Source: a virus. From it: 43,041 nt of DNA. Below the pieces are notes generated by a model that did not search any database, was not told where the DNA came from, and was given only the letters and a program-made list of their open reading frames with translations. Of this stretch, positions 3,684 through 27,269 are shown in pieces; position 1 is the first letter of the stretch, and each line of letters begins with the position of its first letter. The stretch lies in IMG/VR virus record IMGVR_UViG_3300045988_104271; one strand, 5' to 3'. The position numbers and the translations under genes were made by a program.

Positions 3684-3761
3684 ATTAGGTCACTCCTTTC
3701 AGAAAATGCTTGACTTTTAGCCTCCAAAATGGGAGGATTATAAAAAAAGGTGGTACATATC

Positions 3762-4277
3762 ATGGAAGACTATCTTATCGATGAGCAAATTCTACACAAA
3801 GATGTTGTATCGTTTATTGTGATTATCTCTTTGGTTCGCATCTGTGTTGTTAGTGCATTGTCATACTTGGTGCTATTCCTGCTCAGTAAGTTATTTGCCG
3901 TAATCGGGATAGCATCAGTTCTTGACTTTTTACTCAACGCAATTACAACAATCTCTTTTGGTTTGATAAGCACCCTTGACGATGTTGCAGGGATGATATC
4001 TGCCATAATAGGTTGTAACTCAGCGATAAAATTTTTGATTGTGCAAACAGATATTGCCAAAAACCGCATAGAAGACAGGCGATTTTCTGCAAAAATCATA
4101 GGCATTATAGTCATTGTCGGTTTTCTTGCAGCCGCTATCATAAGTGTGTTAGTAAACGGCCCATTTTCTATGCTTTATTCTTCAATCACTTGCTACGGCG
4201 GTTGGAGGTTCCTAGAAATTAGTCATGCAAGCAAGAAAGCGCTGAAACAACTCGCCGATACACAGTCAGAACAGTAG
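3762..4277 (+). CDS. Multi-pass membrane protein, opposite-strand moron (171 aa)
   Basis: Four to five hydrophobic segments, AGGTGG upstream of the ATG at 3762, and a visibly lower GC than the flanking sequence. It is the only plus-strand gene inside the late operon. Confidence 0.7.
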   Translation: MEDYLIDEQILHKDVVSFIVIISLVRICVVSALSYLVLFLLSKLFAVIGIASVLDFLLNAITTISFGLISTLDDVAGMISAIIGCNSAIKFLIVQTDIAKNRIEDRRFSAKIIGIIVIVGFLAAAIISVLVNGPFSMLYSSITCYGGWRFLEISHASKKALKQLADTQSEQ

Positions 4278-4292
4278 ACACCAAGCTAATAA

Positions 4293-4320
4293 ATACTAGG
4301 CCTCATAAGAGGCCTAGTAT
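4293..4320. terminator. Bidirectional hairpin terminator (12-bp perfect stem, ATAA loop)
   Basis: ATACTAGGCCTC-ATAA-GAGGCCTAGTAT is flanked by A/T-rich runs. It lies between convergent stops at 4277 and 4325. Confidence 0.7.
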
Positions 4321-4324
4321 TTTA

Positions 4325-7300
4325 CTATCTCCACGGTGCTTCATCCAACGTGCTTTCCTTGTACCCGCAAGCAAGCCACAAAGCATCCTTCTGTGCTTTT
4401 GTAAGGCGTTGCTTGTTGATATAATCAGCGACCTTATCTCGTTTCGAGTTTCGTATGCTGTTCCCGTTCTTATCCTTATCAGCTTTCGCGCTTCCATTGA
4501 ACTTGTAAACATCATAAAACAGAGTTTTATCAATGTTCGCAGGCTTTGCATATTCAAAGTATTTTGCCGCAAGTGTTTCGGTACCGTCCTCAATGCTCGT
4601 GTCGTGGGCTTCGGGATAATCGCGCCAGAAGTCCCACTTTGTTATCATGGCTTCTGCATCGTCCATCTTATAGCCGCACCTCACCAGTATGCGCTTCGCG
4701 TCTCCGGCCTTTACCTCTCCGGCATCAAAATATTGCCTTACAGCAGCCCTAACGGTTTCGCGGGCTTTCTTGGTCGGGTCAGTTGTAGTATCGCGCTCCA
4801 CCATGGTCTTGAACTGTTTATCAAGCCGCGTGTAATCGCCCGTAGTTATAGCCTTATCTACGCCCTTGTATAATTCAAGCTCCTGCTTTACGCCAAGCCC
4901 TTCGCGTATCTCGTACATTATATTGCCGCTAAGTTCAGGTTCATTTCCGCTTATCGCTTTATAAGCTTCCTTGACTACGCCGAGCCAGTCCTTTATAAAC
5001 GCATCAAGCGGTATGCCGAACATTTGTGATGTAGCTTTTGCCATCCTCAGCAGACGCTCATCAAGTCCCTTTTTCTCATTGTCAAGGTCGCCAGCGGCGT
5101 TAATCAAGTCTTGTATAACCTTCAACTCAGAACGCGAAGAAGTATAGCCTTGTAACATTGACAATACTTCATTCACGAGTGGGAGTGAACCAAGAGTATC
5201 TAATTCGCCGCCAAGATAGATGTATTCGCCAATGTAAGGGACTTTCTTAAGCGGAGTGCCAACCAGATTGCCGACCAATGCTTCAACGTACTTGTCAACG
5301 TAGTTCTGGTTTTCATCATCATCGCGTATTGCGGTTATGACTGATTTCAGTATGGCGTTAAAAACGCCCGCGCCTATAATAGAAGCAGCAGTGCGCAGCA
5401 ATCTTGCCTTGCCGCCCTTCTCGTCCATGTGTTTCAGCGCGTACCAGTACATATTATAGCTTACCGTAGGCTCAGCCTTGAATGAGGTAAAAAGCTTAGC
5501 TCCCGCGCTCTTTGAGCGCATATACTCACTTCGGGATATCACGCTATCATACACCTGCGTATACTCTATGACATCATCAAACCTATGACCAACGGCCTTG
5601 TAGAACTCCTCGCTTCCGCGTTCAAAGGCGGTTGTGTCTGCTATTTCGTTTTCACACGCCTTCCATATCCTGCACCAAGTTATTTCGTCCATCTTCTGTG
5701 GCGCCCAGCCTGCAACGGCATCTCTGACATTCCTGAAATTGAGCTTGTTGTTGTCGGCCATCCATTGCACAAGCCCTTTGCCCGTGTAGGCATCGAAGCC
5801 GCCAACTTCCTTTATAACCGCTGTGCCGGAATACTTCTTAGCAGTATCGTATGTGTTCTTACTCACATGACCAAAGAAGTATTTAGGGTCTACCAACGCA
5901 GTAGCGCGGACAATCGCGGATGGCTGCTGTATTGCAACCGAGAGCTTACCCGAAATAGCATTGCGTCTGAATGCGGATATCATTTTGGAGGCCATACTGT
6001 CACGCGGGTCAACGGTAATATTTCCGCTGATATCATTGATAAAGGTCTTTATATACTTGCTCGTATGCTGACCGTATGCCTTGTCAAGCTCTGCCCTTAT
6101 ATAGGTATTCGCGCCGCCGTCCTCGCCCCACTGCTTGTAGTTATAAACTTTAGCCATAGTGTCTTGAGGTATTGCCATAGCGTTATATGTAGCCATATCC
6201 GCCATGTGCTGCAATGCCTTTTGTGTAATGCCGGTTATCACAATCGGGTTTCTTGCGCCTGCAACGGTATTCTTCGTGAAGCCCTTATTCATCCAGCTCA
6301 TGGCTTCGGGAACCCTGCCGTTAAAGGCGGTTTCAATGAACTGCCGAGCGGACATTATAGGAATGTAATAGCTTTCTGCAAAGCGGTTTATGCCATACAT
6401 CTGCATAGTAACCTCGTTGCCAAGCTCTGCGCCCTTGGTGCTCATAAGCTCCACCAGCGCATCAGCATACCCTTTCTGCTCCTTCGTAAGCCAATCGGAT
6501 ATCTCAGCTATGGTTTCCTCACTCAACGGCTTATTGACATTATCGTTTGTTGCCGTCTCTATAAGCTTACCGTTTTTCTGCACAACGTCTTTATTGAACA
6601 CAAAGCCATCTTTGGTTAGATGCTGAGTGCCTATAAGCTTTTCGCGCTTTGCGGTTGCATAGATATCAAGAGCCTGTTCCCTTGTAATGCTTACATTGCT
6701 GCCGCCCTTTATCTGGATGGTGAGCAAGTCGCCCGACTTGTCTGCCCATTCCTTGTAACGATATTTGTCCTTGATTTGCGCGTATTCCTCGCGTATGGCG
6801 TTTGCCGTAAGCGCAGCCTTATACGATGCCTGACGCACATCGTTGAACAAGGTTTTCATCTCTCCGCCTATGTTGTCGAAGAAGTATATGGGCTTGACGT
6901 TGCCTGAATTGAAAAATCCCGAAACAGCCGAAGCCATTTTATAAGCATAAGGGTGCTTGCGCATAAACTCGCGCGCCTTAGGCCGCTGCACTTGAGCCGT
7001 TTTGATTATGTTCCCGCCGATATCGTCTATATACTGCCGCCTGCCGTCCGCTATGACGGTGTTGGCGGTAGTGACGGTATGTTTTACCGCTGCAACGATA
7101 TTGTTCAGCTCCTTGAGTTTGTCTAAGGGCATATCGCTTATGTTGTTGTACTTGCTTGCGCTGTCCAACAGGCTTTGCATGTTGTCTATAAGGTCAGGGG
7201 CATATTCTATCAGCGGGTTATCAATATCGGGATTTGTCTTTGCCCTGTCCACCTGCTGCATCCACGTTTGCAGATTGCGCATAGCGTCCTTCCACATATA

Positions 7301-10300
7301 GCCTTTCTTGCCGTCAAACTCCAACGTTTTGAGCAGGTCAGCCGTCTTGTTGCGCAGGGCTTCCGGCACATGCTTACTGTTGTTGGGCTTGGTAAGCCAG
7401 CTATAGAGCGACTTGGCGTTCTTCTCTATGCTCGTCTTGTACTTGGTAATGTCCCTCTGGTCGCGCAGCTTCTCATACTTGGCCTTAGCCTGTTCCCTCT
7501 GCTGCTCCATGAGCGTGTTATACCGCGCCCGCTGCATTTCAAGCTTCTTCTGTTGCTTGTCGGCAAAAGTCTTGCGTTCAGGCATTGCCATATACTCGCC
7601 ATATAACCGCATAGCAAGGTCGGCGGCGTATTCCTTCATGCCGTAGCCATAGGGATTCTCTATTGGGCGGTCATACATATTCACCACTTCATCGTGTAAA
7701 AGTATAGGCATATCAACATCGGGAGTATCGGGGTCGAACGTGTCGGGGAACATGCCGGACAGGTCGCGCCACGCCTGTTCAAGGGATATGCCCTCGGTCT
7801 TAGAGAACTTAGCCTTGTTGTACAACTCCCGCCTAAATTCGGTGTATGAGCCGAAGGCGCTCTGCACTTCTGCAAGCTGCTTCTCGTTTAGCTTTATGGT
7901 GTTGTTTTTCAGAAACTCCCGCGCGGGCTTGGTGTTGTCGTACCACTCCGTGTTACGCTTGGAGGACTGGTCAAGCACGTTCAGGGCAATGTTCATTGCA
8001 CCAGCCTGTACCTCATCCCACACAACGTTCTCACCATTGCCTATGTAGTCAAACAGTTCGGTTATGTTGCTGACCAGTTCGGCCTTATCCATCTTACTGC
8101 TATATTCTTTCAGTAAACTGCCCGCCAATCGTTCAACAGCGGATGCTTTGACGTGGTGGCCGTCCGAAAGCTTTATTTCCTGTTTTGCGACTTCCAACGC
8201 TTGTTTCAGCTTGTCGTTCTGCTTTTGCAGCTTCTTAGCATCTTCAGGAGTGACGGATACATCATCCTTGCGGGAGAAACGGAAACGTTCGGTAAACTCA
8301 GAATTAAGTTTGCTCAATCGTTCACCTTCAACATCCGGATTATATGTTTCAACTGGAATACCACGGCTTTCAAGTGCGGTTTGTAAATCCTCGTACTTGC
8401 CCTCAGGCATAATAACTGCCCTAACTTCATCAAAGCTGACCGCTCGCTGGGGTTTGGCTTCAAAGTACTCCGTAGGCATCTTCGCAATATCCTGTGTTAG
8501 GGAAATAAGGCTGTCTACAATATCATAGGAGGCTTTATACACCTGAGGCCACTGATTCAGATAGTTGTATATGCCGGTTCGGGTTTTACGCAGAGCAACG
8601 GCTTCGCACAGCGTGTTCGCAGCATCCCACCAATCCTTGTTCCCCGCATAGGTATCAACAATTTCGCGGAACCTATTGCTGTAGGTTTCTTTTATCGCCG
8701 CATATTGTTCTTCGTTGAGAGTTTGCAGACGGCTGCTGTCAGCCTTGATATCTGCAATAGATTCGTATTCCCTTGCTGAAGAACCGAATATACTCTTTGT
8801 GCCAAGCCCAGAAGCTCCCTTTTCATCCTGCGACTTCATGGCCTTGACAATGTTCTCAAGATTAAACTCCCAGTATAGCGTTTCAAAGCTTCTGCGATTA
8901 CCGGAATTTGTAAACGTGTCTTTATCGTTGCGTATTCCTTTCTTTGAAACAATTCCAGAAAAAGTGTTTTCCAGCCATGCTTTGTATTCGGAAGGGTTTA
9001 CCGCTTCCTTAATCGCTTTCTGCGTTGCTGCAATGTCAGGTTGCGTCCTCACCATCCTTGGGCCATTCTGCATGTAACTGCGAACTTTGAGGGCATCTGT
9101 GAGAACATCGCCGCGGCTAAAACCGTCAGCAACAACAGACGCAGCGGCTTCGGAATCTATCCCAGCATCAATCAACTGTTGTTTAAGTGCCTCACGGTAC
9201 GATTCACCATATTTTTCATACCATGTTGCTCTGCTCTTGCCCGTGCCCATGGCTTCAAAAGCGTCCTTCCCAAGCTTATTCAGTATGAAGTCGTACCTTT
9301 CCTTTTCAGGCTCTCCGATTTCGGTTACAACTTCGCGCTGAATGGTCTCGATTGGCTGTTTACCTTGGTCAACAAGATAGGCTTGCATCATATCGGTGTT
9401 GTCGGCAAAACTCTTTACTATAGCCTGTTCGCTACCGCCATACCGCGCTATTGCTTCCCCGGCATCGTCTACACCGAAAGCATATAAGGGGTACGCAATA
9501 TCGCTTCCCGCCTTCTCATATACCTTGTAATACAAGTCTCTTAACCGTTTAATGCTTTTCTCGTTCGGTTTGTATCCAATTTGAGGGAATGTAGGCGTGT
9601 ATGCATCGGCATTATACACCTTGTTGCCGCTACGTTTTGGGTCAATCGTATCCTTGCCGAATATAAGCGATATATCTCCAAACTCGCTATGGCCAAGTTC
9701 GGGTTTTGTTATTGCTATTGATGGCATCGGGAATCCGCCAAGTTCGATATCTGCTTCAAGCTCGGCACCCTTCAGATTATGAACCGCTATAAGGTCGCGG
9801 GTTTCCTCGACAGTATCTTTCATAGAGAAACGAATATCTGGATTGTTGGGGTCAAACGTGCCTATGTTGTCCGTTGCACTCTTGATTTGGTTGCTGTTGA
9901 AAACGACTGTCTCTGTGTCAAGAATCAGACCGTCAAAGTCCGTCCCGTTGACTTCGTTGAACAGTTCCACCGCCGCCACCATGTCGCCGATTGCGGTCTG
10001 GTTCACATCATTCAGCATGGCAAAATCGTTCTTCCCGTACACATCTTTCAGTACGCTGTCAACTGTTGCACCGGATCCGTAGTTTTCCAGTCCGTAATCT
10101 TCGTTTTCCGCTACCGCTTCAAGGAAATTGCGCATCTGCTTCTTCGTAATGGTTCGCTCCTGCATAGGTACCGGATGTTTCACATCCAGATAATATGCAC
10201 GGGCATCTCCATATTGTCGGGCATGGCTTTCGCTGTCTGTGAAATAGAATCCACGGCCATACAGATTGGAATATTTGGATTTCTTCCGGTCAAAGATGTT

Positions 10301-13300
10301 GAACGTTTCATTTCCGCCACGATACATCACCTTCGGCGTTCCATCCGCATTAACTACCTTGCTGGCTTTCGCGGGATTGTTCTGCCAATCGCCGAACCAA
10401 CGCTTGAATTGTTGCGATTCTTCGACAGCATTTTTCATGGAAAAACGCACCTGCTTATCAAGTGGTTTGCCGAGATTCTCAAAATTGAGTTCATCTTCGC
10501 GCACAAGCAGGTCGCGTGCTTCTTTGGGGATTATGCCATCTTCGTACAGTTCATCGGCTATTCGCGCCCGTTCTTCGTCTCCGGTCGCATCAAGAAGCGG
10601 CTGTATTTCCTCACTCATGGGTATAACCACGGACGGCACATCTACACCAGCCTCCCGTGCGGCAAGTATTCTATGAGAGCCGGTCAGAGCCTGATATCCA
10701 TCGTTCCCGTTCTCAACAAGCACAACTCTGCGCCCATTGTAGCCGTTGTTCTCAAACTCGTTTATGAGGTAATGGTATTTGCTGCTGCTTGTAACTCTGT
10801 TGGGCGGCGTTATCTCCATCGGATTGACTTCTCGGATATCTGCGCCGCTATCTTTCGCAGAAAGCTTGACATTTCCATCCGATTTTTCCTTGTAATCAAA
10901 TACTTTTTGTAGTATACTAATTACGGAAGGTGTATCTGCGCTGGGAGCGCCGATTTTATTGGCCCCAGTCTTGAACGTAGATACGCCTTCTATTTTTATT
11001 TCGTGCAGATAGAAGTCATCGTTTATACTTTTCTTTCTGAGTATTACACCCTCTACAGCATTTTGCCCAGAAAAGACAACAGGTGCGGCAACAATGACCG
11101 TGTCATATCCGCGACCTTTCCAATTGTATTGAACATCAAGTATTTTACCCTTCTTTATAACATCAGGGACAGCAACAAATGCAGCAGCCTTATTTCTTCC
11201 TATACCGTGGGCTATATCATCCTTAACCCCGTTTCTGTCGAGAATTATTCGTCCAAGGTCTGGGCTTATAACTTCCCCACCAATTTCCTCAAAGAAATTT
11301 GAAACTTGCGTTATCAAGTCAACTTCGCCCTTTGCGAACTCAGTTCCCTTCACTTTAGCCACAGGCTGCATATTGGCTACGGCTCTATAATTCTTCTCAA
11401 TATCGACACTGCTTCCAAAATTGGGGTCAAGGCGCGGCGAAAAGCTAACTTTGCCATCTTCATTAGCCGCTTTACCCTTTGTCCCTTCCATCCCCTCAAA
11501 GTAATAATCGGCTATCATGTCAAGGGTCTGCTTGTTGTTGCGGATAAGCTCCATCTGTTCCCAGCTCTTTTGGCCTTTGAGAATGTTATATGCCTTATCC
11601 AGTATCGCACGAAGGTCTTTTATAAGCTGTTCAAACCACGCCCTGACCTTCCCGCTCGACTTCATAACTTTATCGGCAAAGCGTTTGCCCTGCTGCTCAT
11701 CGGTAAGGATAACAGGAACGGTGTTGGCTACCACTTCGGTAACGGCTTCGGAGCGGCTCAGGCCGTTCTTATCTATCTGGTACTGCACCATCTTTTCAAA
11801 CTCGGCCTTGGCTTCGTCAAACGTCATGCCCTTCTGGTTCATCAACTCGCCTTCGATAGCTGCTTCAACGACCTCAGACAGCGCGCTAAAGCCTTCTTTG
11901 TTCTTGACCTCCATCTCATGGATGCTCTCATGCGCGACAACGTAAGCATACGCCTGTCCAGTACTATCAAGCGAAAGGTGATAGGTGTCCGTCTTGGCGT
12001 CATAGTATGCGTTCGCATCACTCCTGCTGAACGTTACGCTGTTGCCGTCAGTGCCTATGGCATCGTGTATTACAAGTTTCTTCCCAGCGGCCTTGAACAC
12101 CTCGTCCAGCGCCCTTATCTGCTTGCGCTGTGAACTGGTGAGCTTCTGGTCTGAATATTCGCGGTTCACGCCCGCCTCGTACTCTGCCTTGGCTTGCGGC
12201 CTTACGTTGTTGCCCTGCTGTCCGGCAATGGAGTTTGCGCGGCTGGACTGATACGCGGCCTGTCCTGCACGGAATGCGGCCATTCTTGCGTTGTCGTTGA
12301 GATAATGACGCGCATACACGCTATCGCCTACGGCCTTTGCATATTCATAGCCCTGCTTACCGCTTAGATAAACGGAATTAAACCCACGGAGATAGTTATC
12401 AACGCTCGTTTCGCCCGTGTAGTTGTTTACCAATGCATTTGCCGTATTAGCATCGAAGGACGCGGCACGCTCATACAGCACGTTTATGTTCGGGTCGTCA
12501 AAGTCCACATCGGACAACTGCGCCGTAGTGCCATCGGAGAGCCTCACATTCAGGCCATTATCGGTATCGACTATGCTCCCTACGCTAACAGCATTGCCAT
12601 TGCTTGTAGTTGCCGTATGGCGCGTTGCAACGCCGTTCTGCGCGGTTTTAGCGGGTGCGGCGGCATTGTTGCTTGTCTGCCTTTCAAGAGGTCTCTGCGC
12701 GGCTTTTTCGGCGGCTTGTGCGGCGGCCTCCTGAATGTTCGTGGGCGGCTGTGTCTGCGCGGCCTTGGCCGCGGCTTCTGCAACGCGGTTTATATCCTCA
12801 TTAGCGGGAGTTCTGTTTACGGCGGCAGGAGGTTCTACTTCATTTCCGGCTACGCCCTGAGCGGCTTTACGTTGTATATCCACGGGAGATTGTTCCTGCA
12901 CGCTTTGCGCGGCTGTGCTTTCTCGCTGCATAGAATTGAGAGCAGCATTGAACTCCCGTTCCGCATATCTTGCTACGCCTATGTCGAGCGCAAGGTTGGG
13001 TGCTTCGAACAATCCTGCGGTGAGCGCGCCCATAAGACCGGAATAAAGCGCTTCCTCGTCAAGCGGGTTAAATTCGTTCTGTTCACCCGCTACTACGTTT
13101 TTGAACACAGGCTCAAGGAGGGATTGGAGGTATTCTTCCGTGGCTTCCGAGCCCATGTTTGCAATGTATCTGCCTATGGCATCAGTAACGCCTTTGTTCT
13201 TTATCACTTTGCCAAGCGCACGACTTATAGCACCGCCCGCAGCTTCTTCAGTTATACCAAGGCCAAGGCTGGATATACCACCAAGAACGGCTTGCAATCC

Positions 13301-14509
13301 GGCTTCGGACGCGCCAACAAGTGTACCATATGTAAGAGCTTGTTTGTGTGTATAACCGCTATCGCGGCCTTCTTTATAGGCATTGCCGCCAGCAGAAACA
13401 CCAAGCGTAGATGCGCCTAATGCTGAAGCAAGCTTCGAGGGAACATCAAGCCCGCCGAGGGCGGCAGACGCAGCAATCGACGGGAGCATATTGCCGCCAG
13501 TATAAGCAACATCGTTTATAGCCCCGCGCACTGGGTTTAATCCTTCCCTCCATGCCTTATACTCATACTGTAATGGAGAAGTTGGAACCATGGGGCCGTC
13601 AAATACACCACTAATAGCATTTGTCATACCGGCAAAAGCGTTATCAACACCGGCAACAAAAGGCAATATGCCGGCAGTTCCGACTTTTTTATTAAGACCA
13701 GCTTCCTTAGTGCCTATTCTATAATTCAGAGATTCTTGAAGAAGGCTTCTAAACTTTTCTGCTTCGCTATCTCCGCGTGTTCCAAGCAGGTAGTAATAAA
13801 TGTCGCGTTCATCGTCAGTCATTGCGTCAACGCTGGCTATCGTGTCGGCGCGTTGGAAGTCTTCTGCCTGTTTGCTCGTTATAATTGCATTTCCACTGCC
13901 CATGGCACCATTAAATATATCCCAAAAGCCCGGAGTGGATTCGCGTTCGCGTTTGTTGGCGGCTTCATATTTATGCTGCCCTACGGCTACTCCGCTTTTG
14001 AAGTCGCTCGCGCTAAAATACTTGCCGTAACCCGCTATTTCATTGTCTCTTTCCTGTAAGCGTTGTTTGCGCTCTGCTGCAAGCTTGTCCTTCCCCATCT
14101 GTACAGAAGCTTTTTCTGCCTGTCTGCGTTCGGTCAATTCTTTCTGCCAGTTCGGGTTATAGTAAGAACTGCGGGGATTGCGGGACTGTGGGGGTTGCGG
14201 TCTTTGCCGCCGACTGTTTGTGACATACGCATTGGCAGCGTTGCGGTAGTCCTCGGTGGTAAGAGTGGGGGACTGATTCTGCCGATATGCGCTTCCTTCT
14301 GGTGTAGAGCGCGAATACCGCTGAGATTCATATGTGCGGGGGATAGTGGATATTTCGTTTTTCTCCCGCAAGGACTGATAGGGGGTTTTGTCCCTGTATT
14401 TATAAGTCGCGCTGTTCGGGTCGTACCTCGCTGCTATTTCGCTTGCAAGGCGTTCCTTATCGTCCGCAACATTCTTACCGCTTTTCTTCGTGTTGTTGAG
14501 TTTTGCCAT
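4325..14509 (-). CDS. Giant 3,394-aa polyvalent virion/ejection protein (zincin, ParB-like and ART-like modules plus large uncharacterised domains)
   Basis: A single uninterrupted ORF of 10.2 kb. Recognisable modules are listed as separate entries. Recurrent (V/I)RFS(M/R)K linkers and Gly/Ala-rich hydrophobic segments occur at aa 280-500. Confidence 0.9.
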   Translation of the reverse strand: MAKLNNTKKSGKNVADDKERLASEIAARYDPNSATYKYRDKTPYQSLREKNEISTIPRTYESQRYSRSTPEGSAYRQNQSPTLTTEDYRNAANAYVTNSRRQRPQPPQSRNPRSSYYNPNWQKELTERRQAEKASVQMGKDKLAAERKQRLQERDNEIAGYGKYFSASDFKSGVAVGQHKYEAANKRERESTPGFWDIFNGAMGSGNAIITSKQAEDFQRADTIASVDAMTDDERDIYYYLLGTRGDSEAEKFRSLLQESLNYRIGTKEAGLNKKVGTAGILPFVAGVDNAFAGMTNAISGVFDGPMVPTSPLQYEYKAWREGLNPVRGAINDVAYTGGNMLPSIAASAALGGLDVPSKLASALGASTLGVSAGGNAYKEGRDSGYTHKQALTYGTLVGASEAGLQAVLGGISSLGLGITEEAAGGAISRALGKVIKNKGVTDAIGRYIANMGSEATEEYLQSLLEPVFKNVVAGEQNEFNPLDEEALYSGLMGALTAGLFEAPNLALDIGVARYAEREFNAALNSMQRESTAAQSVQEQSPVDIQRKAAQGVAGNEVEPPAAVNRTPANEDINRVAEAAAKAAQTQPPTNIQEAAAQAAEKAAQRPLERQTSNNAAAPAKTAQNGVATRHTATTSNGNAVSVGSIVDTDNGLNVRLSDGTTAQLSDVDFDDPNINVLYERAASFDANTANALVNNYTGETSVDNYLRGFNSVYLSGKQGYEYAKAVGDSVYARHYLNDNARMAAFRAGQAAYQSSRANSIAGQQGNNVRPQAKAEYEAGVNREYSDQKLTSSQRKQIRALDEVFKAAGKKLVIHDAIGTDGNSVTFSRSDANAYYDAKTDTYHLSLDSTGQAYAYVVAHESIHEMEVKNKEGFSALSEVVEAAIEGELMNQKGMTFDEAKAEFEKMVQYQIDKNGLSRSEAVTEVVANTVPVILTDEQQGKRFADKVMKSSGKVRAWFEQLIKDLRAILDKAYNILKGQKSWEQMELIRNNKQTLDMIADYYFEGMEGTKGKAANEDGKVSFSPRLDPNFGSSVDIEKNYRAVANMQPVAKVKGTEFAKGEVDLITQVSNFFEEIGGEVISPDLGRIILDRNGVKDDIAHGIGRNKAAAFVAVPDVIKKGKILDVQYNWKGRGYDTVIVAAPVVFSGQNAVEGVILRKKSINDDFYLHEIKIEGVSTFKTGANKIGAPSADTPSVISILQKVFDYKEKSDGNVKLSAKDSGADIREVNPMEITPPNRVTSSSKYHYLINEFENNGYNGRRVVLVENGNDGYQALTGSHRILAAREAGVDVPSVVIPMSEEIQPLLDATGDEERARIADELYEDGIIPKEARDLLVREDELNFENLGKPLDKQVRFSMKNAVEESQQFKRWFGDWQNNPAKASKVVNADGTPKVMYRGGNETFNIFDRKKSKYSNLYGRGFYFTDSESHARQYGDARAYYLDVKHPVPMQERTITKKQMRNFLEAVAENEDYGLENYGSGATVDSVLKDVYGKNDFAMLNDVNQTAIGDMVAAVELFNEVNGTDFDGLILDTETVVFNSNQIKSATDNIGTFDPNNPDIRFSMKDTVEETRDLIAVHNLKGAELEADIELGGFPMPSIAITKPELGHSEFGDISLIFGKDTIDPKRSGNKVYNADAYTPTFPQIGYKPNEKSIKRLRDLYYKVYEKAGSDIAYPLYAFGVDDAGEAIARYGGSEQAIVKSFADNTDMMQAYLVDQGKQPIETIQREVVTEIGEPEKERYDFILNKLGKDAFEAMGTGKSRATWYEKYGESYREALKQQLIDAGIDSEAAASVVADGFSRGDVLTDALKVRSYMQNGPRMVRTQPDIAATQKAIKEAVNPSEYKAWLENTFSGIVSKKGIRNDKDTFTNSGNRRSFETLYWEFNLENIVKAMKSQDEKGASGLGTKSIFGSSAREYESIADIKADSSRLQTLNEEQYAAIKETYSNRFREIVDTYAGNKDWWDAANTLCEAVALRKTRTGIYNYLNQWPQVYKASYDIVDSLISLTQDIAKMPTEYFEAKPQRAVSFDEVRAVIMPEGKYEDLQTALESRGIPVETYNPDVEGERLSKLNSEFTERFRFSRKDDVSVTPEDAKKLQKQNDKLKQALEVAKQEIKLSDGHHVKASAVERLAGSLLKEYSSKMDKAELVSNITELFDYIGNGENVVWDEVQAGAMNIALNVLDQSSKRNTEWYDNTKPAREFLKNNTIKLNEKQLAEVQSAFGSYTEFRRELYNKAKFSKTEGISLEQAWRDLSGMFPDTFDPDTPDVDMPILLHDEVVNMYDRPIENPYGYGMKEYAADLAMRLYGEYMAMPERKTFADKQQKKLEMQRARYNTLMEQQREQAKAKYEKLRDQRDITKYKTSIEKNAKSLYSWLTKPNNSKHVPEALRNKTADLLKTLEFDGKKGYMWKDAMRNLQTWMQQVDRAKTNPDIDNPLIEYAPDLIDNMQSLLDSASKYNNISDMPLDKLKELNNIVAAVKHTVTTANTVIADGRRQYIDDIGGNIIKTAQVQRPKAREFMRKHPYAYKMASAVSGFFNSGNVKPIYFFDNIGGEMKTLFNDVRQASYKAALTANAIREEYAQIKDKYRYKEWADKSGDLLTIQIKGGSNVSITREQALDIYATAKREKLIGTQHLTKDGFVFNKDVVQKNGKLIETATNDNVNKPLSEETIAEISDWLTKEQKGYADALVELMSTKGAELGNEVTMQMYGINRFAESYYIPIMSARQFIETAFNGRVPEAMSWMNKGFTKNTVAGARNPIVITGITQKALQHMADMATYNAMAIPQDTMAKVYNYKQWGEDGGANTYIRAELDKAYGQHTSKYIKTFINDISGNITVDPRDSMASKMISAFRRNAISGKLSVAIQQPSAIVRATALVDPKYFFGHVSKNTYDTAKKYSGTAVIKEVGGFDAYTGKGLVQWMADNNKLNFRNVRDAVAGWAPQKMDEITWCRIWKACENEIADTTAFERGSEEFYKAVGHRFDDVIEYTQVYDSVISRSEYMRSKSAGAKLFTSFKAEPTVSYNMYWYALKHMDEKGGKARLLRTAASIIGAGVFNAILKSVITAIRDDDENQNYVDKYVEALVGNLVGTPLKKVPYIGEYIYLGGELDTLGSLPLVNEVLSMLQGYTSSRSELKVIQDLINAAGDLDNEKKGLDERLLRMAKATSQMFGIPLDAFIKDWLGVVKEAYKAISGNEPELSGNIMYEIREGLGVKQELELYKGVDKAITTGDYTRLDKQFKTMVERDTTTDPTKKARETVRAAVRQYFDAGEVKAGDAKRILVRCGYKMDDAEAMITKWDFWRDYPEAHDTSIEDGTETLAAKYFEYAKPANIDKTLFYDVYKFNGSAKADKDKNGNSIRNSKRDKVADYINKQRLTKAQKDALWLACGYKESTLDEAPWR
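9830..10414 (-). other. ADP-ribosyltransferase-like module of the polyvalent-protein type (aa about 1366-1560)
   Basis: FKRWFGDW...KVMYRGG...GRGFYFTDS...AYYLDV...VVFNSNQIKSATDNIGTFD is the pattern I associate with ART-PolyVal domains. Confidence 0.55.
10610..10828 (-). other. ParB/sulfiredoxin-like nuclease-type domain (aa about 1228-1300)
   Basis: YQALTGSHRILAAREAGVDVPSVVI matches the ParB N-domain GxHR...G signature. Confidence 0.65.
11918..11932 (-). other. HExxH zincin metallopeptidase motif (aa 860-864, AHESIHEM)
   Basis: Motif read directly: VVAHESIHEM. Confidence 0.6.
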
Positions 14510-14513
14510 AGTA

Positions 14514-15758: not shown

Positions 15759-15760
15759 AA

Positions 15761-16393
15761 TTAGCCTCCTTCTGCGGGCGAATAGGCTTCTGCCGCCTTG
15801 ATTAGTTCGCCGTTGCTTTTTATGTAAACAGGGTAGTAGGTCTCCCCGTCCTGCGCCGTAGCTACTCCGGTAGCAAACAGCTTGGCGGATGCAACGTGGC
15901 TCCCGTCAAGCTGTGTGCTTCCCGAAGCGGAGGAAAGAGATGAAAACGTGCCTGTGGCACCCGTTATTTTTGATACGCCGTTTTGCTCAAGCTCCGTATC
16001 TGTCACATAGCCTTTCTGTTCGAGTTGCGTATCTGTAACAAAATTGCCCGTAAACTGTATCGTCACCCTTGCAAGTTCAGAATCAGCCATTTTCAGCACA
16101 AGGATGCAGGAACGCTCACGATTCTCAGCATTAAGGCCGAGTTGTGTTGCGTTCTTCTCTACCTTCGATATTGCACCGCCTATGTCGCGCAAGTCTTGCG
16201 ACACCTTGGTTACCGCTGCACCGTTGTCGGATATGGACTTAGAAAGACCTGACGACAAGTTTTCAACGTCAATGTTGTTAAGGATATATTTTAGCTGCCT
16301 TGTGAGCAAAACGAGGTATTCCTTTATCTGCTTGCGCTCCTTGGCATCGTCAAGCTGATTATCATTAAAGTTTGGGAGTTTGAAATCTATCAT
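15761..16393 (-). CDS. Virion protein (210 aa), possible plug/needle
   Basis: Called from position in the operon. Its start overlaps the upstream stop (16390-16393). Confidence 0.65.
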   Translation of the reverse strand: MIDFKLPNFNDNQLDDAKERKQIKEYLVLLTRQLKYILNNIDVENLSSGLSKSISDNGAAVTKVSQDLRDIGGAISKVEKNATQLGLNAENRERSCILVLKMADSELARVTIQFTGNFVTDTQLEQKGYVTDTELEQNGVSKITGATGTFSSLSSASGSTQLDGSHVASAKLFATGVATAQDGETYYPVYIKSNGELIKAAEAYSPAEGG

Positions 16394-18183
16394 ATATCGC
16401 TGCCCTCCTCTACCGTTCGAGTGAACGAATATATCTTACAATCACCAACGCCGCTTATACGTACCTTCATATGGTCACACCTTCGCGGTATTATGGGTAC
16501 GGTAAAAGACCGCAAGCGCGTTGCGTTTATGCGGTACTTCTCTGTCCATTGTCCATCGCTGTCATATTGCAGCTCTATCTTGACCATTGAGCCTTCCGGC
16601 ACTTCAAGGCGGAATTGCAGCTTAGATATATACTTGTTGTTGGGTATGCCCATGCCGATATCGCCAGTTTCGACGTACCATTCGACAGGGGGTTCAAGCT
16701 TCTTCTGGCCTTCAAAATTTTGCAGAAACGTACCGTTCACGGAATATATATCGTCTTTAGTCATAAAGTATAGGTCTTTGTCGTATGTAGCAAACATCTC
16801 AATATTTATCTTATCGATTTTATGCCAAATACCGAGCTTATCATCATACGAAAACAACCAGCGTTCTCCTGAATCATCTTCCATTGAGATATAATATAAA
16901 GAGCCGATTGAGCCAGCAACAGCATTTTTATAATGCACATTGCCCAAGGCATCTGAAACGGGCGTAGGCTGTGTAGCGCCGTATGCGCAGATATCATAAG
17001 CAGACTTATAATAAAGCGTTTCGTTGACAACACAAAGGCTTCTTTCGCTGCCTTTCTCCACACCGCGACAACGAGCATAATCAAGCTGGAAGTTTGACGG
17101 CTTATTGCCGTGCAAGGTTATTACTTCGTTCTCTTTGAAGAACAATACATAACCGCCATGGGATATACAACCTGTAAAATCGCCTGTTGAACCAATCGTA
17201 GCAGAATAACTCGCTGTAGCTTGGTCGGTGAAGTAATTCCAGTTGGTAGGGTCTCCTAACTTGCAAGCATATATTTCATGTTTACCGGAAGAACAGCCCC
17301 ATATGCGGTTGTTGTGTTCGCACAAGAAATCCATATCGGGCACTTTGCGTTCTATTGTCACCGCAGACGATTCAGTTCCGGCTTTGTCGAGCGTGCCAGT
17401 TATCACAATGTAATCATCTGTTACGCCATAAAGAATAAAATCGCCATTAAGTATGGAATTGGACGCTCCGCTTATCGTCACAGCATCATATACCTTGAAG
17501 CCTACGCCTATACCGGTCTTTGACATCTTAATGTATGTCGTTGGTATAGACTGCCAAGAAAGATATAGCACTGAATACTGCATAAGGACGTGCGGAGTTA
17601 CGGAAGTGTTCATCCACAGTTGCCCGTCAGTGGGGTCGCTTGGTGCTGTGTCGCTTGTGGTATATGCCTGATAATCAGTTGCATCTACCTTGCAAAGCTG
17701 CAAGGTAATATCGCCCGATGTAGTGACGGTATTCTCAAGGTTTTCATGAGTATCGGTTATAGTGTCATATACTATTTTATCAGGCCAAATGAATATCTTC
17801 GAGCCCATATTAACAAGCGTTTTCTTGGCTTTTGACAGGGGCATTTTGGGCTTCAACGAAGTTTCGTTGTAGCCGCCAGCCAGTTTGCCATCGTAAAACA
17901 TGAAAACTGCGCGCATGGTTCCAGACCCTTCAGACCCGCCAATCCAACCTACGGTTACTTCCTGCACGGTACAAAATTTTTCATGTGCGTGGATACTATA
18001 CAAATCGTTTATTTTTTGTATCCCGCGCTGCACCCTTGGAGACAAAGCGGGATAGTTCCTACCAGACATATTTTTCATGTCGTAAAATTCCTTACCGCTT
18101 ACGCGGTAGGTATGATTATAGCCGCGAAACTCCGTTGCGCTTTCCCGCGAGGACTGTATGTTATCAAGTTTAGGCAGATACAT
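16390..18183 (-). CDS. Large tail/nozzle-type structural protein (597 aa)
   Basis: Called from size and position between the connector-sized gene and the ejection proteins. Confidence 0.65.
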   Translation of the reverse strand: MYLPKLDNIQSSRESATEFRGYNHTYRVSGKEFYDMKNMSGRNYPALSPRVQRGIQKINDLYSIHAHEKFCTVQEVTVGWIGGSEGSGTMRAVFMFYDGKLAGGYNETSLKPKMPLSKAKKTLVNMGSKIFIWPDKIVYDTITDTHENLENTVTTSGDITLQLCKVDATDYQAYTTSDTAPSDPTDGQLWMNTSVTPHVLMQYSVLYLSWQSIPTTYIKMSKTGIGVGFKVYDAVTISGASNSILNGDFILYGVTDDYIVITGTLDKAGTESSAVTIERKVPDMDFLCEHNNRIWGCSSGKHEIYACKLGDPTNWNYFTDQATASYSATIGSTGDFTGCISHGGYVLFFKENEVITLHGNKPSNFQLDYARCRGVEKGSERSLCVVNETLYYKSAYDICAYGATQPTPVSDALGNVHYKNAVAGSIGSLYYISMEDDSGERWLFSYDDKLGIWHKIDKINIEMFATYDKDLYFMTKDDIYSVNGTFLQNFEGQKKLEPPVEWYVETGDIGMGIPNNKYISKLQFRLEVPEGSMVKIELQYDSDGQWTEKYRINATRLRSFTVPIIPRRCDHMKVRISGVGDCKIYSFTRTVEEGSDI

Positions 18184-18186
18184 ATG

Positions 18187-18558: not shown

Positions 18559-18651
18559 GGTCTACCTCCTGTGATTAGAGTTGCGGACTGGCGGAGTTGC
18601 GCCGCCATGCAGGGAACTGCCCGCCCACATGATGAGAGGGGCTTGCGCCCC

Positions 18652-18897: not shown

Positions 18898-18909
18898 TTT
18901 CTTTCCTCC

Positions 18910-20166: not shown

Positions 20167-20198
20167 GCGTTCTCCTTTCAGAATAAAAAGAAGGCCGC

Positions 20199-21140
20199 TT
20201 AATCGAATGTGATTGTGCGGTCTCCCCTAAGTACTCGCCGCGAGATTTCTTCGCGGTCTTTGCGTGTAAGTTTTGCGGGGTCTGTCTTAACGATTTGCGC
20301 GGGCGCACTTCCGCTCGTGCCGTTCTCGGCAGGGCGCATGCCCCGTGCGCGTATGTCGTTTACCGTCTTTTTGTGTACCTGCTCGGCGGTGTACTGCATC
20401 GCGCCGCCTATGATATCGTCCTTGTGTATCAGCTCGTAGGCATCTTTTACGGATATGCCAGCCCCAAGCAACTCCATGAAACGCCTGCCCGTTTCGGGGT
20501 TCTGCGCTTCCGTGTCAAAATTGAAGTTGGGGTATATCTGAGTACACTCGGCGGATTCGCTGTCCCAACGGGAAAATACCTCGCGCTGGGCATTCATGCG
20601 CTGCTGCTCTTCCATTGCCCGCCTAAAGTCAGCGTTCTCGCGCTCTATGCGCTTCATGTGCTTAAGCTGCTCCACGGTCAAACCGCGCTCCATGGCTTCA
20701 TCCTCATAGAAGCTGTTATCTTCTTCGATGGCCTTGAGGATTGCCTGAGGGTCTGAGCCGCTTACGCCGTACTTCGATGCAAGCGCATCCATCATGGGCG
20801 CGTAGGAATCAAGCTGTGCAGCCTTTTCTTTCAGCGCATTCACGTCCCTAAAGCGATTAGAGAGTATTTTCTGCACGCGGGCATCGAACTCAGCTTTGTA
20901 CTCGCCTTTTATCAGCCCATCAAATGCCGCAGCCCTATCAACCTGCGTGTCGCTTTTGACAATGGTCTCGCTCTGCTGCTGTCCGCCTGTGCCATACTGC
21001 ACATCAGCCAGCGGGTTTTTGCTTGCTTTGGCAGGTGTGCTGCCACCTTCGGGCGCACCCGTGCCGGCATCTCCGCCGCCTTCGCCGCCGCCATCGGCAA
21101 ACAGCATCAAGTCAAGCTCGGTAAACAACTTTGTTTTCAT
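20199..21140 (-). CDS. Scaffolding protein (313 aa)
   Basis: Acidic and helix-rich, positioned between the protease and the capsid gene. N-terminal leader ELDLMLFADGG. Confidence 0.75.
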   Translation of the reverse strand: MKTKLFTELDLMLFADGGGEGGGDAGTGAPEGGSTPAKASKNPLADVQYGTGGQQQSETIVKSDTQVDRAAAFDGLIKGEYKAEFDARVQKILSNRFRDVNALKEKAAQLDSYAPMMDALASKYGVSGSDPQAILKAIEEDNSFYEDEAMERGLTVEQLKHMKRIERENADFRRAMEEQQRMNAQREVFSRWDSESAECTQIYPNFNFDTEAQNPETGRRFMELLGAGISVKDAYELIHKDDIIGGAMQYTAEQVHKKTVNDIRARGMRPAENGTSGSAPAQIVKTDPAKLTRKDREEISRRVLRGDRTITFD

Positions 21141-21520
21141 GGTTTTCTCCTTCTGCCGTCTTTCCGGCGTGTCTTTTTAGTCTTGGGTCTGTCCCCAGCG
21201 TCCTTGGGTCTATCCCCAGCGTCTGTATGCAATGCAACGTTGTCGGGGTACTTGGCAGCCAAAAGCGCGAATCCTTGACTAATGGTGTCAAATATCGCGG
21301 CTACCTTGTCCCCTCCATTGCTAATGCGCATAAAAAAAGAACCATCATCGGTTCTGTAATCGAAGTCGCAGCCCGTGGTGAAACAGGACTGCAAGAGCGT
21401 GTATGTCAACGTTGAGCAAGCTGCACATACAATATCGGGGCAGTCAACGGAATATCCCGCATGCCCCGATATATCGGCAACATAGTCGTTACCGTCCTTA
21501 TATAACCTTGCCGTTGTCAT
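21137..21520 (-). CDS. prp: Prp-family (ribosomal-processing cysteine protease-like) prohead protease
   Basis: DISGHAGYSVDCPDIVCAACSTL matches the Prp GHA...DIVCAAVS His/Cys signature. I prefer the start at 21520 (GAGGA upstream), just after the portal stop. The C-terminus carries a DAGDRPK x2 repeat. Confidence 0.7.
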   Translation of the reverse strand: MTTARLYKDGNDYVADISGHAGYSVDCPDIVCAACSTLTYTLLQSCFTTGCDFDYRTDDGSFFMRISNGGDKVAAIFDTISQGFALLAAKYPDNVALHTDAGDRPKDAGDRPKTKKTRRKDGRRRKP

Positions 21521-21524
21521 TGGT

Positions 21525-23426
21525 CTATGTCCTCGGTGTCGATACAGCCGCAGCCCTTTGCCGTGCCGCGCCCGCCGTGCTGTTGCGTGCATCGTTAAGC
21601 GCGTCACCCAAGGCATTAACGCTTGTCTCGTTCGCGGGATTGCCCTGAGGTGTCTCCTGCTGCTGTTGGCCTATCATTTGCGCCACCTGATCCCCGTACT
21701 GCGTGCCTTGTGTTGCATCAAGGCGCATCGACATAGCCGCTACAAGCTGTTGCAACTGCTGTATTTGCTGATACATGGTGCCGTTCTTAGCGATATTCTG
21801 CCGCACCTGCTCAATGCCATCGAACGACATCATATCCAACGCCGCAAGTGCTTGGTCTGACAAATCAGGCCGGAAGAATCCCATGCCGTACAGCTCCTTA
21901 GCGCGCTCATTTTGCGCTACCGTGGAGAACGGCGAAGCCTTCTGCGCCGTCACTTCGATATCGAATATAGGCACGCGATAGCCAAGGTCAAGGCCGTAAT
22001 CGGTTCCCTGCGGTTTCTGGGCTATCTGTCTGCCTGTGAACTGGACGAACTCCATCTCCCCTTGTGCGCCTATCACCCTAAACCAGCGTTCCTCTGCGTA
22101 GAACTGGCGCATGAGCTCAATACACAAATAATTGACCTGCACAAAAGCACGATAACTGGACTTAATCATGTCGCGGGACAGCTTTGAGCCCGCTTCCTGC
22201 AACGCCGCAATGGCAGATGCAGCAGTAACGCCCGAAGTCGTGCCGCCCTGAGAGAAGTCGCGGTTGCCGCTTGTCTCCTTGAGTTCCTCGATTTTCAGCG
22301 TCCTAACATCAACGCAAATCGGCGACAGCGGGGGAATTTCCAGCGGGATTATGTTCTCAGCGGGATTGCCCGAGCCGGAGTAATGTATGAAGTCATTCTT
22401 ATCCCACTCGGCGTATTCCTTTTCGTTCACGCTGCCGTCCTGCCGCACCCAAAAACGCGGCCTTGCGGACATAATTGCGTGCTTTAATATCACTTGGTCG
22501 AGCTTGTCTACAAAGAGTTGTGGGCTTTTGCACACGTCAATGTACCCAAAACCGGCAGGAGAACCCGCCACAGGGAACAGCGTATCGAATACAACGGGAT
22601 ACTTGCCGTGGTCATAAAACCCGCGCTCTGCATACTCGGGGTCGTTTTCGGACGCATACAGCACTTCGCCGTTGCAAAACTTGCAGTAATGCAGCACGTC
22701 CTTGCCATTACGCTGTACTTTGTAGTACCAGTCAATCACGGCCGCTTTGTCGGTCGTGTCTACGGTATCATCATATATGTACTTTGCCGTATCCACCGTG
22801 GGCGATGATAGCTTGCCCTTCAATTCGGGGTAATTTTCCTCCACGAGGTCGCGGTCAACCAACTCCACCGTGAAAAGGTTGCGGGATTTCTGAATGTCCA
22901 TAATGCCAGGCTCCCAGAAAAGATTGAGAAGGTCAAGCTCCCGCACGTCTATATCGCCCAGGCCGTTGTTTTTGCGCGAATCCCAGTACACGCCAAGCAC
23001 GCCAGTACCGCTTTTAAGCTTGTACCACCACATATCGCTATAAGTCTGCTCAAAATCATTCTGCTCAAGGATTACAGGCAAGATATCGGACAGGATTTTG
23101 GCATCGTCCTTATCTCCTTCCTCGCGCGGCAGCACGTTGGGTTCGGGGTAGTTGTCCATTGCGTCAGCGTGTTTATTTGCAATGCAGTTAAACAGCCATG
23201 CAGATGTCGGGCGGGGGTCACCAGGATTCCGGCTCAAAAGCAGCTCGTTGTGCCGCAGCTTGTACCATTGCTCGTTTTCAATAATACGTTGCTCAAGCAT
23301 TGCCTTGCCCTGCTTGTACTTTTGCAATATCTGCTCGGCTTCCCTTATCTCTTCTTTCCCTATCGCCTGATATGTCACAGGGGCGGTGTCCTCCACCGGC
23401 GTGTTGTTAAGTATAATGTCATCCAT
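21525..23426 (-). CDS. Portal protein (633 aa)
   Basis: Called from size and position directly after TerL. I prefer the start at 23426 (GGAGGTG 8 nt upstream). Confidence 0.75.
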   Translation of the reverse strand: MDDIILNNTPVEDTAPVTYQAIGKEEIREAEQILQKYKQGKAMLEQRIIENEQWYKLRHNELLLSRNPGDPRPTSAWLFNCIANKHADAMDNYPEPNVLPREEGDKDDAKILSDILPVILEQNDFEQTYSDMWWYKLKSGTGVLGVYWDSRKNNGLGDIDVRELDLLNLFWEPGIMDIQKSRNLFTVELVDRDLVEENYPELKGKLSSPTVDTAKYIYDDTVDTTDKAAVIDWYYKVQRNGKDVLHYCKFCNGEVLYASENDPEYAERGFYDHGKYPVVFDTLFPVAGSPAGFGYIDVCKSPQLFVDKLDQVILKHAIMSARPRFWVRQDGSVNEKEYAEWDKNDFIHYSGSGNPAENIIPLEIPPLSPICVDVRTLKIEELKETSGNRDFSQGGTTSGVTAASAIAALQEAGSKLSRDMIKSSYRAFVQVNYLCIELMRQFYAEERWFRVIGAQGEMEFVQFTGRQIAQKPQGTDYGLDLGYRVPIFDIEVTAQKASPFSTVAQNERAKELYGMGFFRPDLSDQALAALDMMSFDGIEQVRQNIAKNGTMYQQIQQLQQLVAAMSMRLDATQGTQYGDQVAQMIGQQQQETPQGNPANETSVNALGDALNDARNSTAGAARQRAAAVSTPRT

Positions 23427-23430
23427 GGGG

Positions 23431-27244: not shown

Positions 27245-27269
27245 CCGGTCTGAAAACCTAAAATCAAAT

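Follow-up and report, generated by a model that had tools for sequence, protein, structure and literature searches.

Virus record IMGVR_UViG_3300045988_104271 of IMG/VR, a 43,041-nucleotide (nt) stretch of DNA that was analyzed as a whole (the window), contains a single uninterrupted 10.2-kb open reading frame (ORF) on the minus strand (4325..14509), which starts with an ATG and codes for a giant protein of 3,394 amino acids (aa) plus a stop codon. We put at about 0.7 the probability that this gene encodes a polyvalent effector polyprotein of the phage type, in which an N-terminal anchor is followed by a downstream payload. Phage-type polyvalent proteins were described by Iyer, Burroughs, Anand, de Souza, and Aravind (2017, J Bacteriol; PMC5512222), who predicted their packaging in the capsid and proposed that they are injected and autoprocessed by an MPTase (zincin) domain into functional units. 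Like them, the giant protein combines several unrelated effector domains (2 to 15 in that class), here ART-PolyVal, PBECR, LPD3, ParB-like, and zincin modules in one polypeptide, and it is encoded among the virion genes of a phage with a portal and a terminase. These five module types, together with the position of the gene between head/internal-virion genes and a receptor-binding gene, bear out the polyvalent identity assigned in a preliminary description of the ORF. The kind of protein is already known, and its class will be no surprise to the specialist; what we describe is a new and well-resolved member.

Bases 1-99 of the window are identical to bases 42943-43041, and the assembly is therefore circular, as expected for a complete genome (~42.9 kb) that is either circular or circularly permuted. 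The giant ORF takes up 23.7% of it, as had been noted previously (24%). The gene starts 4 nt past the stop codon of an upstream gene for a 414-aa protein, and it has a full-length homologue with 99% identity (P0001). The motifs quoted in the preliminary description (HESIH, GSHRILAAREAG, MYRGG, GFYFTDS, NQIKSATDN, and the linkers) all lie where it had placed them. Searches with a 2025 copy of Pfam-A, run with the protein both intact and divided into ten overlapping pieces, returned ART-PolyVal, PBECR5, and LPD3 above their cutoffs, so that a domain-by-domain check with hidden Markov models (HMMs) did not end in the absence of such domains. NCBIfam gave no match for the giant protein or the neighboring genes, and near-identity DNA searches with this phage recovered no cultured relative and no Escherichia coli match.

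The largest recognizable module, overlooked previously, is a PBECR5 RNase-like domain (PF18814) at aa 1559-1778, which scores 187 bits against a cutoff of 25 (E = 6e-55); a phmmer search of this module against PDB found nothing. With an uncharacterized extension to aa 2075, it constitutes the fourth of four cassette slots (8285..9817, minus strand, as are all features of the giant gene given below). The third slot (aa 1360-1558; 9836..10432) is occupied by an ADP-ribosyltransferase (ART) module, which was earlier called ART-like and can now be assigned to ART-PolyVal (PF18760; Tox-ART-HYD2 clade) over aa 1388-1552, with 73.1 bits against a cutoff of 31.2 and coverage of HMM positions 2-140 of 140. 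Its motifs are MYRGG at aa 1395, GFYFTDS at aa 1420, and NQIKSATDN at aa 1540. The active site of the ART-PolyVal family has been defined as H-Y-D (PMC5512222); here R1397 replaces the strand 1 histidine, the strand 2 tyrosine is present as Y1422, and no acidic residue of strand 5 was confidently matched to the D. This arginine in place of the histidine of most relatives, also pointed out earlier, recurs in a wider sample: the ART-like stretches that could be retrieved from our protein collection have R 12 times and H 50 times in the strand 1 column. The R form (MYRGG/MYRGD ... GRGFYFTDS) is kept within its subclade down to 46% identity, and we therefore regard it as a maintained variant rather than a product of decay.

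The first slot (aa 1027-1213; 10871..11431) contains an LPD3 module (PF18798; aa ~1067-1167), whose score of 28.7 bits is marginal with respect to the gathering cutoff of 27. The domain is clearer (47.6 bits) at the aligned place in H66_0060, a 3,787-aa protein of Pseudomonas phage H66 (an F116-like Hollowayvirus), the record of which reads "verified by mass spectrometry as part of the virion." The nuclease-like module previously suspected at aa 1080-1170 finds no support, this region being LPD3. The second slot holds a ParB/Srx-like module at aa 1220-1353 (10451..10852), with GSHRILAAREAG at aa 1276-1287 as the ParB-type motif region and GSHR at aa 1277-1280. On the module itself, ParB_N (PF02195; aa 1237-1301) reaches 12.4 bits, below the cutoff of 26.3 (E = 0.17). 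A dedicated search recovered homologues at 40 to 46% identity that bear PF02195, in the alignment of which GSHR (the GxxR active-site motif) is invariant; further, the PDB entry that the module's profile matches best is SbnI, the ParB/Srx domain of which aligns over the GxHR core (E ~0.1). By these comparisons, the region is a divergent ParB/Srx module, such that the ParB-type domain previously proposed stands by virtue of its PF02195-bearing homologues, the invariant GSHR, and the SbnI match and not by virtue of its own ParB_N score.

Upstream of the slots, aa 640-1020 (11450..12592) comprise a small beta domain, a helical region, and a zincin-like metallopeptidase domain with the sequence HESIH at aa 860-864 (nt 11918-11932) and, 61 residues past the HExxH, E925 (nt 11735-11737) as a candidate third zinc ligand. 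An HExxH arises in 1.7% of shuffles of the giant protein. The reading of this sequence as a zincin motif is upheld by homologues, since H860, E861, H864, and E925 are all invariant across 19 to 30 of them, down to ~20% identity. Among 19 homologues of the zincin region, 7 match DUF6782, a putative metallopeptidase family (best E = 3e-4), and 1 weakly matches MPTase-PolyVal (PF18818; E = 0.04); a search of PDB sequences with the zincin profile retrieved just helical and coiled-coil noise. An AlphaFold2 (AF2) model, which over aa 630-940 mostly has a predicted local distance difference test (pLDDT) of ~80 to 96 with two short dips, places a β-sheet before the helices bearing HExxH and E925, a topology in keeping with a zincin. 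The stretch spanning zincin and LPD3 aligns by BLASTP with H66_0060 (E = 2.6e-18, 24% identity) such that the HExxH motifs coincide. We conclude from these conservation patterns that the HExxH domain is zincin-like, with the pattern of a gluzincin, its membership in PF18818 not being demonstrated.

The modules are set apart by short recurring linkers, namely, VSFSPR (linker 1; aa 1021-1026; 11432..11449), VKLSAK (linker 2; aa 1214-1219; 10853..10870), VRFSMK (linker 3; aa 1354-1359; 10433..10450), IRFSMK (linker 4; aa 1559-1564; 9818..9835), and FRFSRK (linker 5; aa 2076-2081; 8267..8284). Four copies fit the strict pattern [VIFLM][KR][FLY]Sx[KR], compared with 0.12 expected by chance, and linker 1 is a degenerate fifth. 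Across 144 diverse giant homologues, the motif occurs in 97 copies against 17 expected, clustered at 40 to 60% of protein length, with an extended consensus of D-[IV]-[RK]-[YF]-S-L-[KR]-D. Linker density is fourfold higher in proteins with this zincin (0.27 versus 0.065 per 1,000 aa), where the copies lie mostly 0 to 1,000 aa downstream of the zincin; helicase-type giant proteins (see below) are without the motif. The recurring (V/I)RFS(M/R)K sequences had been proposed to mark domain boundaries, and both this enrichment and their location near most of the recombination breakpoints that follow agree with that proposal. The word "linker" is absent from the main text of Iyer et al. (PMC5512222).

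We found more than 100 homologue clusters from ~42- to 43-kb contigs that are ~88 to 100% identical to the giant protein over the aligned segments, and among these closely related phages the length of the protein ranges from 2,380 to 3,394 aa. BLAST segment maps show that blocks are present, absent, or replaced, with breakpoints at aa 1023-1048, 1204-1213, 1360-1368, 1547-1570, and 2073-2076, most of them within about 20 residues of a linker copy. One recurrent breakpoint, at aa 2017, lies 59 residues ahead of linker 5 and is not accounted for by the linkers. Classification of the blocks in 100 clusters yielded 38 architectures. Slot 1 is empty or contains LPD3a, LPD3b, PBECR3, MuF_C, or one of two unknown modules; slot 2 is nearly constant, with ParB; slot 3 is empty or contains an R-type or an H-type ART; and slot 4 is empty or contains a 151-aa unknown module or PBECR5. 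The complete cassette set of the present phage was found in only one of the 100 clusters. Mosaicism of comparable breadth, with about 50 domain combinations among orthologues, has been described for the Helicobacter prophage protein jhp1044 (PMC5512222).

A deeper exchange is seen in a sister phage (L012/L013), the DNA of which is 92 to 96% identical to that of the present phage over two stretches, one reaching from TerL into the giant gene (as far as about aa 596) and the other beginning at the fiber gene (window 3093-3704 and 12713-24193 compared). After the same first ~596 codons, its giant protein (3,792 aa) continues into an unrelated body with a methyltransferase-like region, an SNF2 helicase, and LPD38, lacking the zincin, the linkers, and the C-terminal core described below. 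More generally, the N-terminal 639 aa are the sole part that the present protein has in common, at 69 to 90% identity, with a second, helicase-type class of giant proteins (3.7 to 3.8 kaa), which display a methyltransferase-like region, an SNF2-type helicase (AAA_34 plus Helicase_C_4), and LPD38. Because a sister phage so similar in its DNA keeps just the first ~596 to 600 aa, the N-terminal ~600 to 640 aa are probably the virion anchor and the remainder an exchangeable payload; judged from sequence comparison, this body swap is our strongest argument that the N-terminal module is tied to the virion. The module itself (aa 1-639; 12593..14509), proposed here as the virion-anchor or delivery part, begins with charged sequence of low complexity and continues into a Gly/Ala-rich helical region, and its AF2 model is helical and of low confidence. 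It gave no Pfam match, phmmer found nothing for it in PDB, and BLAST and local profile searches with it or with the C-terminal core showed no similarity to gp20 of Bacillus phage Page or to H66_0060. The Gly/Ala richness previously noted near the N terminus is real (28 to 30% Gly plus Ala at aa 300-600); the description of these segments as membrane-like is not supported, because the highest 19-residue Kyte-Doolittle mean in the N-terminal region is 1.2, short of the transmembrane level.

The remaining constant part is a C-terminal core at aa 2082-3394 (4328..8266), which is mostly helical, has many invariant polar residues, and contains one hydrophobic helix. A full HMMER scan of 1.84 billion representatives detected it in 3,949 clusters at E ≤ 1e-3, nearly all of them proteins of 2.3 to 4.6 kaa with the module at the C terminus, and its alignments contain about 30 invariant residues, many of them polar. 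A scan of species-representative genomes with the core found no prophage. It matched nothing in Pfam, in NCBIfam, or among PDB sequences. Its AlphaFold model (pLDDT 73; predicted template modeling score [pTM] 0.66), mostly helical, gave no Foldseek match in PDB at E ≤ 1e-3, the best (E = 0.02) being to unrelated helical proteins. Against BFVD, 79 models were retrieved at E ≤ 1e-3, those with names being, almost without exception, pieces of giant uncultured-phage proteins labeled nuclease, PolyVal ART, or LPD. The only strongly hydrophobic stretch of the core is SIIGAGVFNAILKSVITAI (aa 3043-3067; nt about 5309-5383; Kyte-Doolittle mean, 1.71), in which a hydrophobic helix at aa 3043-3061 is followed by RDDDEN; in the consensus of the family, this conserved acidic cluster reads RDDDxD. 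The C-terminal ~1,300 aa had been called uncharacterized; this holds with respect to database matches, and the region proves to be strongly conserved and widespread.

On the basis of these observations, we propose that the N-terminal ~600 to 640 aa would bring the protein into the particle and probably out again with the DNA and that the payload behind it would run from the zincin-like peptidase through up to four cassette slots to the conserved ~1,300-aa core. The slots of the present phage carry LPD3, a ParB/Srx-like module (a putative NTPase or nickase), the R variant of an ART-PolyVal ADP-ribosyltransferase, and an RNase-like PBECR5 domain, which after infection would hit host nucleic acids and proteins early, ahead of phage gene expression. 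The linkers would be the likeliest cut sites of the polyprotein, with the zincin domain in cis as the first candidate protease. With linker-flanked boundaries at or near most of the recombination points, the exchange of cassettes between related phages would give rise to a rapidly diversifying arsenal, set against a host population with many CRISPR (clustered regularly interspaced short palindromic repeat) spacers against the phage. We infer the packaging and injection of the giant protein, as well as its processing at the linkers, the targets of its enzymes, and an antidefense role. Cleavage at the linkers into separate effectors is a tentative part of this proposal, which we place short of even odds because the N4 virion RNA polymerase (vRNAP) and ArdC travel uncut and because the motif could be structural.

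Several observations weigh against this interpretation. The zincin region of the present phage has no Pfam match, including to MPTase-PolyVal (PF18818), and a Foldseek search of PDB with the whole aa 1-1048 model returned nothing significant, a result that is uninformative given the low confidence of the first 630 aa. Experimental support for packaging comes by analogy, from H66_0060, a partial homologue. Both N4 vRNAP and ArdC carry such peptidases and travel unprocessed (PMC5512222), and hence cleavage is not a given; the association between zincin and linkers is confounded by shared ancestry, and the linker could instead be a structural element, e.g., an amphipathic β-strand that opens each module. 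As it lacks the canonical histidine, the R-variant ART may be inactive or may have a different activity. Finally, the conservation of the C-terminal core and its richness in polar residues suggest that it has a function of its own beyond the payload model.

Comparison with characterized systems delimits the proposal further. Like the giant protein, H66_0060 belongs to a temperate podovirus, lies at the end of a structural operon, and combines the homologous zincin (HExxH) plus LPD3 stretch with LPD and methyltransferase-type domains. Unlike it, H66_0060 shows no detectable ART, PBECR5, ParB module, N-terminal module, or C-terminal core, and it lacks the strict linker motif and has a PLxRFG motif that is absent from the protein of the present phage. 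The antirestriction (Dar) proteins DarB and DdrB of phage P1 are likewise large, packaged in the capsid, and injected; DdrB unites a ParB-like domain and a zincin and undergoes proteolytic processing, and DarB is a methylase-helicase, as is the alternative giant body of the sister phage (PMC5512222). The Dar proteins differ in being encoded by separate genes in P1 rather than as one polyprotein, and no sequence relationship to the giant protein came to light, no search aimed at it having been made. Alt of phage T4 offers a precedent for a packaged and injected ADP-ribosyltransferase that reprograms the host (PMC5512222), with the difference that it is a single-domain protein of the R-S-E clade, while the present module is of the H-Y-D type (Tox-ART-HYD2) with R replacing H. 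Within the polyvalent proteins of Iyer et al., the giant protein departs from the others in that its zincin and ParB modules fall below Pfam family thresholds and that neither of its constant parts (the ~640 aa at the N terminus and the core of ~1,300 aa) is matched by a family in the 2025 copy of Pfam-A.

The principal alternative is that the giant protein is mainly a structural ejection or tail protein (a part of an ejectosome, a channel, or a tape-measure analogue) with decorative enzyme domains, whose N-terminal module and C-terminal core form a conduit through the Gram-positive envelope. Its gene indeed comes after that for an "internal virion protein" and right before the BppU_N receptor-binding gene; there is no other long gene, and the late ORFs scanned contain no match to a tail tube, sheath, chaperone, or tape measure. 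The protein is also long and mostly helical, with its Gly/Ala-rich N-terminal region and the conserved hydrophobic helix at aa 3043-3061. We nevertheless consider this account, conduit included, unlikely. A phage 92 to 96% identical does without the zincin, the cassettes, and the C-terminal core, which therefore are not an obligatory conduit of the virion, and the length of the protein varies by the margin given above among near relatives. Furthermore, the portal and capsid are of the podovirus type, the core has no fold match to solved ejection proteins, and the N-terminal segments fall short of transmembrane hydrophobicity. A tape measure was rejected on similar grounds, given the absence of tube and chaperone matches in the late ORFs scanned, the variable length, and the replacement of the body in near-identical phages. 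The ejection/channel role suggested in the preliminary description thus retains its positional argument (late genes, no tape-measure hit), and the idea of a channel for the bulk of the protein is weakened because the sister phage replaces everything past ~aa 596, the core included. Overall, that description is sustained as to the polyvalent class, the genomic context, and the linkers, and not as to the channel, the nuclease-like module, and the membrane-like segments.

Two further readings concern what the modules do. If the modules were competition toxins in the manner of MuF-type polymorphic toxins, rather than antidefense effectors, the cassette diversity would reflect turnover of toxin and immunity. 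PBECR, ART, and ParB-like domains are common to polymorphic toxin systems (PMC5512222), MuF_C occurs in one variant, and host chromosomes retain fragments of the gene that consist of cargo alone and are still intact ORFs. No candidate immunity gene was recognized beside the giant gene, where the downstream 123-aa ORF has no matches and the adjacent gap is not shared with the sister phage, and the cassettes are internal, unlike the C-terminal tips of polymorphic toxins; on balance, we judge this reading quite improbable. The protein could also be an N4-like or crAss-like vRNAP with the C-terminal core as its polymerase. It is, like the ~3,500-aa vRNAP of coliphage N4, which is packaged, injected, and equipped with a zincin in its N-terminal region, of giant size; N4-like vRNAPs also bear zincins and sometimes ARTs (PMC5512222), one homologue record from the F116 group is annotated "putative internal virion polymerase," and the core possesses the acidic RDDDxD cluster and many invariant polar residues. 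We rejected this possibility, which has next to no probability in our estimation. There is no match to any RNA polymerase (RNAP) family in Pfam or NCBIfam, and the pTM 0.66 model of the core has no Foldseek counterpart in PDB at E ≤ 1e-3, so that unlike N4 vRNAP the protein has no polymerase domain or fold. Around the acidic cluster, helices make up nearly the whole model, which shows neither double-psi barrels nor a palm sheet; with its integrase and its repressor-like gene, the phage is expected to rely on the host RNAP; and the sister phage has no such core.

A more far-reaching version of the polyvalent reading can be formulated. In it, a very large, undescribed family of giant phage proteins would have in D-[IV]-[RK]-[FY]-S-x-[KR]-D an element dedicated to marking boundaries, which would serve both as the cut site of the cis zincin and as a frame-preserving junction for cassette exchange, the ~1,300-aa core would be a new enzyme or translocation device, and chromosomal cargo-only copies, among them the one caught beside the trailer end of a type I-C CRISPR array of the host (see below), would take part in exchange or in host counterdefense. 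That all of these parts hold jointly is doubtful. The literature searched contains no description of the linker motif, of the widespread fold-orphan core, or of a body swap behind a constant N terminus. Polyvalent proteins are predicted to act in the infected cell ahead of all other phage proteins; to our knowledge, almost none has been studied experimentally. The present family, nearly all of it from uncultured phages, amounts to about 4,000 clusters at 50% identity and is abundant in human-gut metagenomes, with Christensenellaceae as the candidate host group. Dozens of near-isogenic phages that differ mainly in their cassettes, facing a host that holds many CRISPR spacers, amount to a natural experiment. 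The linker motif provides a concrete, testable prediction of how the polyprotein is cut, making the old processing hypothesis directly testable, and supplies a design rule by which payloads could be swapped into phage particles. The C-terminal core, in turn, is a large module without structural precedent present in thousands of phage lineages.

The late operon runs on the minus strand in the order TerS, TerL, a P22-like portal, a Prp-family cysteine protease, a 313-aa protein, the major capsid protein (MCP), small genes, a 597-aa "internal virion protein," a 210-aa gene, the 414-aa gene, the giant gene, and the BppU_N receptor-binding gene. The 597-aa protein (16390..18183, minus strand) is named from its match to PHROG 511. 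The nearest cultured relatives of the capsid are in podoviruses, namely, the Bacillus Page-like phages and Paenibacillus phage API480; Streptomyces and Alteromonas phages were also matched. The Prp-family protease of the head module (21137..21616, minus strand; Pfam Peptidase_Prp, E = 4.7e-12) is a candidate prohead protease. The MCP (18910-20166, minus strand) and the 313-aa scaffold-like protein (20199-21140, minus strand) both start with an xNLxLFA-type sequence (INLCLFA and LDLMLFA, respectively), which we take to resemble the sequence at which Prp cleaves ribosomal protein L27 and the head proteins of staphylococcal phage 80alpha. This protease is also a candidate processor of the giant protein, a role less supported than that in the prohead. 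As the linker protease it is not favored, since the linker is basic where the xNLxLFA motif is hydrophobic and acidic where that motif has Leu, and the comparison of sites does not support cleavage. Between the giant gene and the fiber gene lies a ~620-bp gap (3704-4325) with weak ORFs only, which is outside the homology with the sister phage; the two fiber genes have in common the first ~610 nt (BppU_N) alone. The presence of an integrase, an HTH (helix-turn-helix) repressor-like gene, and RecT/YqaJ supports the earlier view that the phage is temperate. A look-up of the integrase returned short contigs only, with no host flank.

The host could be approached through contigs that encode ~550-aa proteins 96 to 97% identical to the cargo part of the giant protein and that are of bacterial chromosomal origin, with a type I-C cas operon. 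In three of them (L003, L004, and L009), type I-C CRISPR arrays at about 11.3 to 18.4 kb contain 60 to 99 repeats of GTCGCTCCCCCTCGTGGGGAGCGTGGATTGAAAT. Among 229 unique spacers, 26 match the phage at five or fewer mismatches, 16 of them with a TTC protospacer-adjacent motif (PAM). All but one of the matching spacers (25 of 26) fall in the early/lysogeny half (25.8 to 42.6 kb; 25847-42598), the other being at 900-932, and none of the 26 falls in the structural operon (window 1400-25800), the giant gene included. Preferential acquisition of spacers, either at one end of the DNA or out of shared early modules, may lie behind this skew. The GTDB representative "Christensenellaceae bacterium Phil1" has the same repeat and locus at 97% identity, and because the CRISPR locus that targets the phage is also found there, we assign the host to the Christensenellaceae.

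At this chromosomal locus there is a 1.3- to 1.6-kb in-frame fragment of the giant gene (L003, 9971-11589; L009, 9971-11304), which corresponds to window positions 10439-11695, 7914-8281, and 9757-9832 and runs from aa ~939 to aa 2205 in L003 or to about aa 1584 in L009. On the right it directly adjoins the trailer-most CRISPR repeat, its left junction is identical in L003 and L009, and the reference metagenome-assembled genome has 46 nt in its place. The phage triplet past the end of the L003 fragment is GAA (the PAM), and the fragment therefore ends like the PAM-proximal end of a normal spacer. Recombination of an old spacer with phage DNA or an aberrant long integration are possible origins. 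We also considered whether the fragment has at its left end a degenerate terminal CRISPR repeat, but the identity to the repeat there, about 38% by eye, is unconvincing. At an unrelated chromosomal locus (L006 to L008), the order is smpB, transfer-messenger RNA (tmRNA), an integrase remnant, a fragment, and proS. We dismissed the tmRNA as the attachment site of the present phage, given that the L006 integrase remnant is unrelated to its integrase and that the window has no tmRNA-like stretch. The 550-aa ORF of L006 (about 9980-11650) joins aa ~916-1026 of a related giant gene, PBECR3, and aa 2048-2329. The independent remnants in L003/L009 and in L006 to L008 thus keep nearly the same cargo region, together with short arms.

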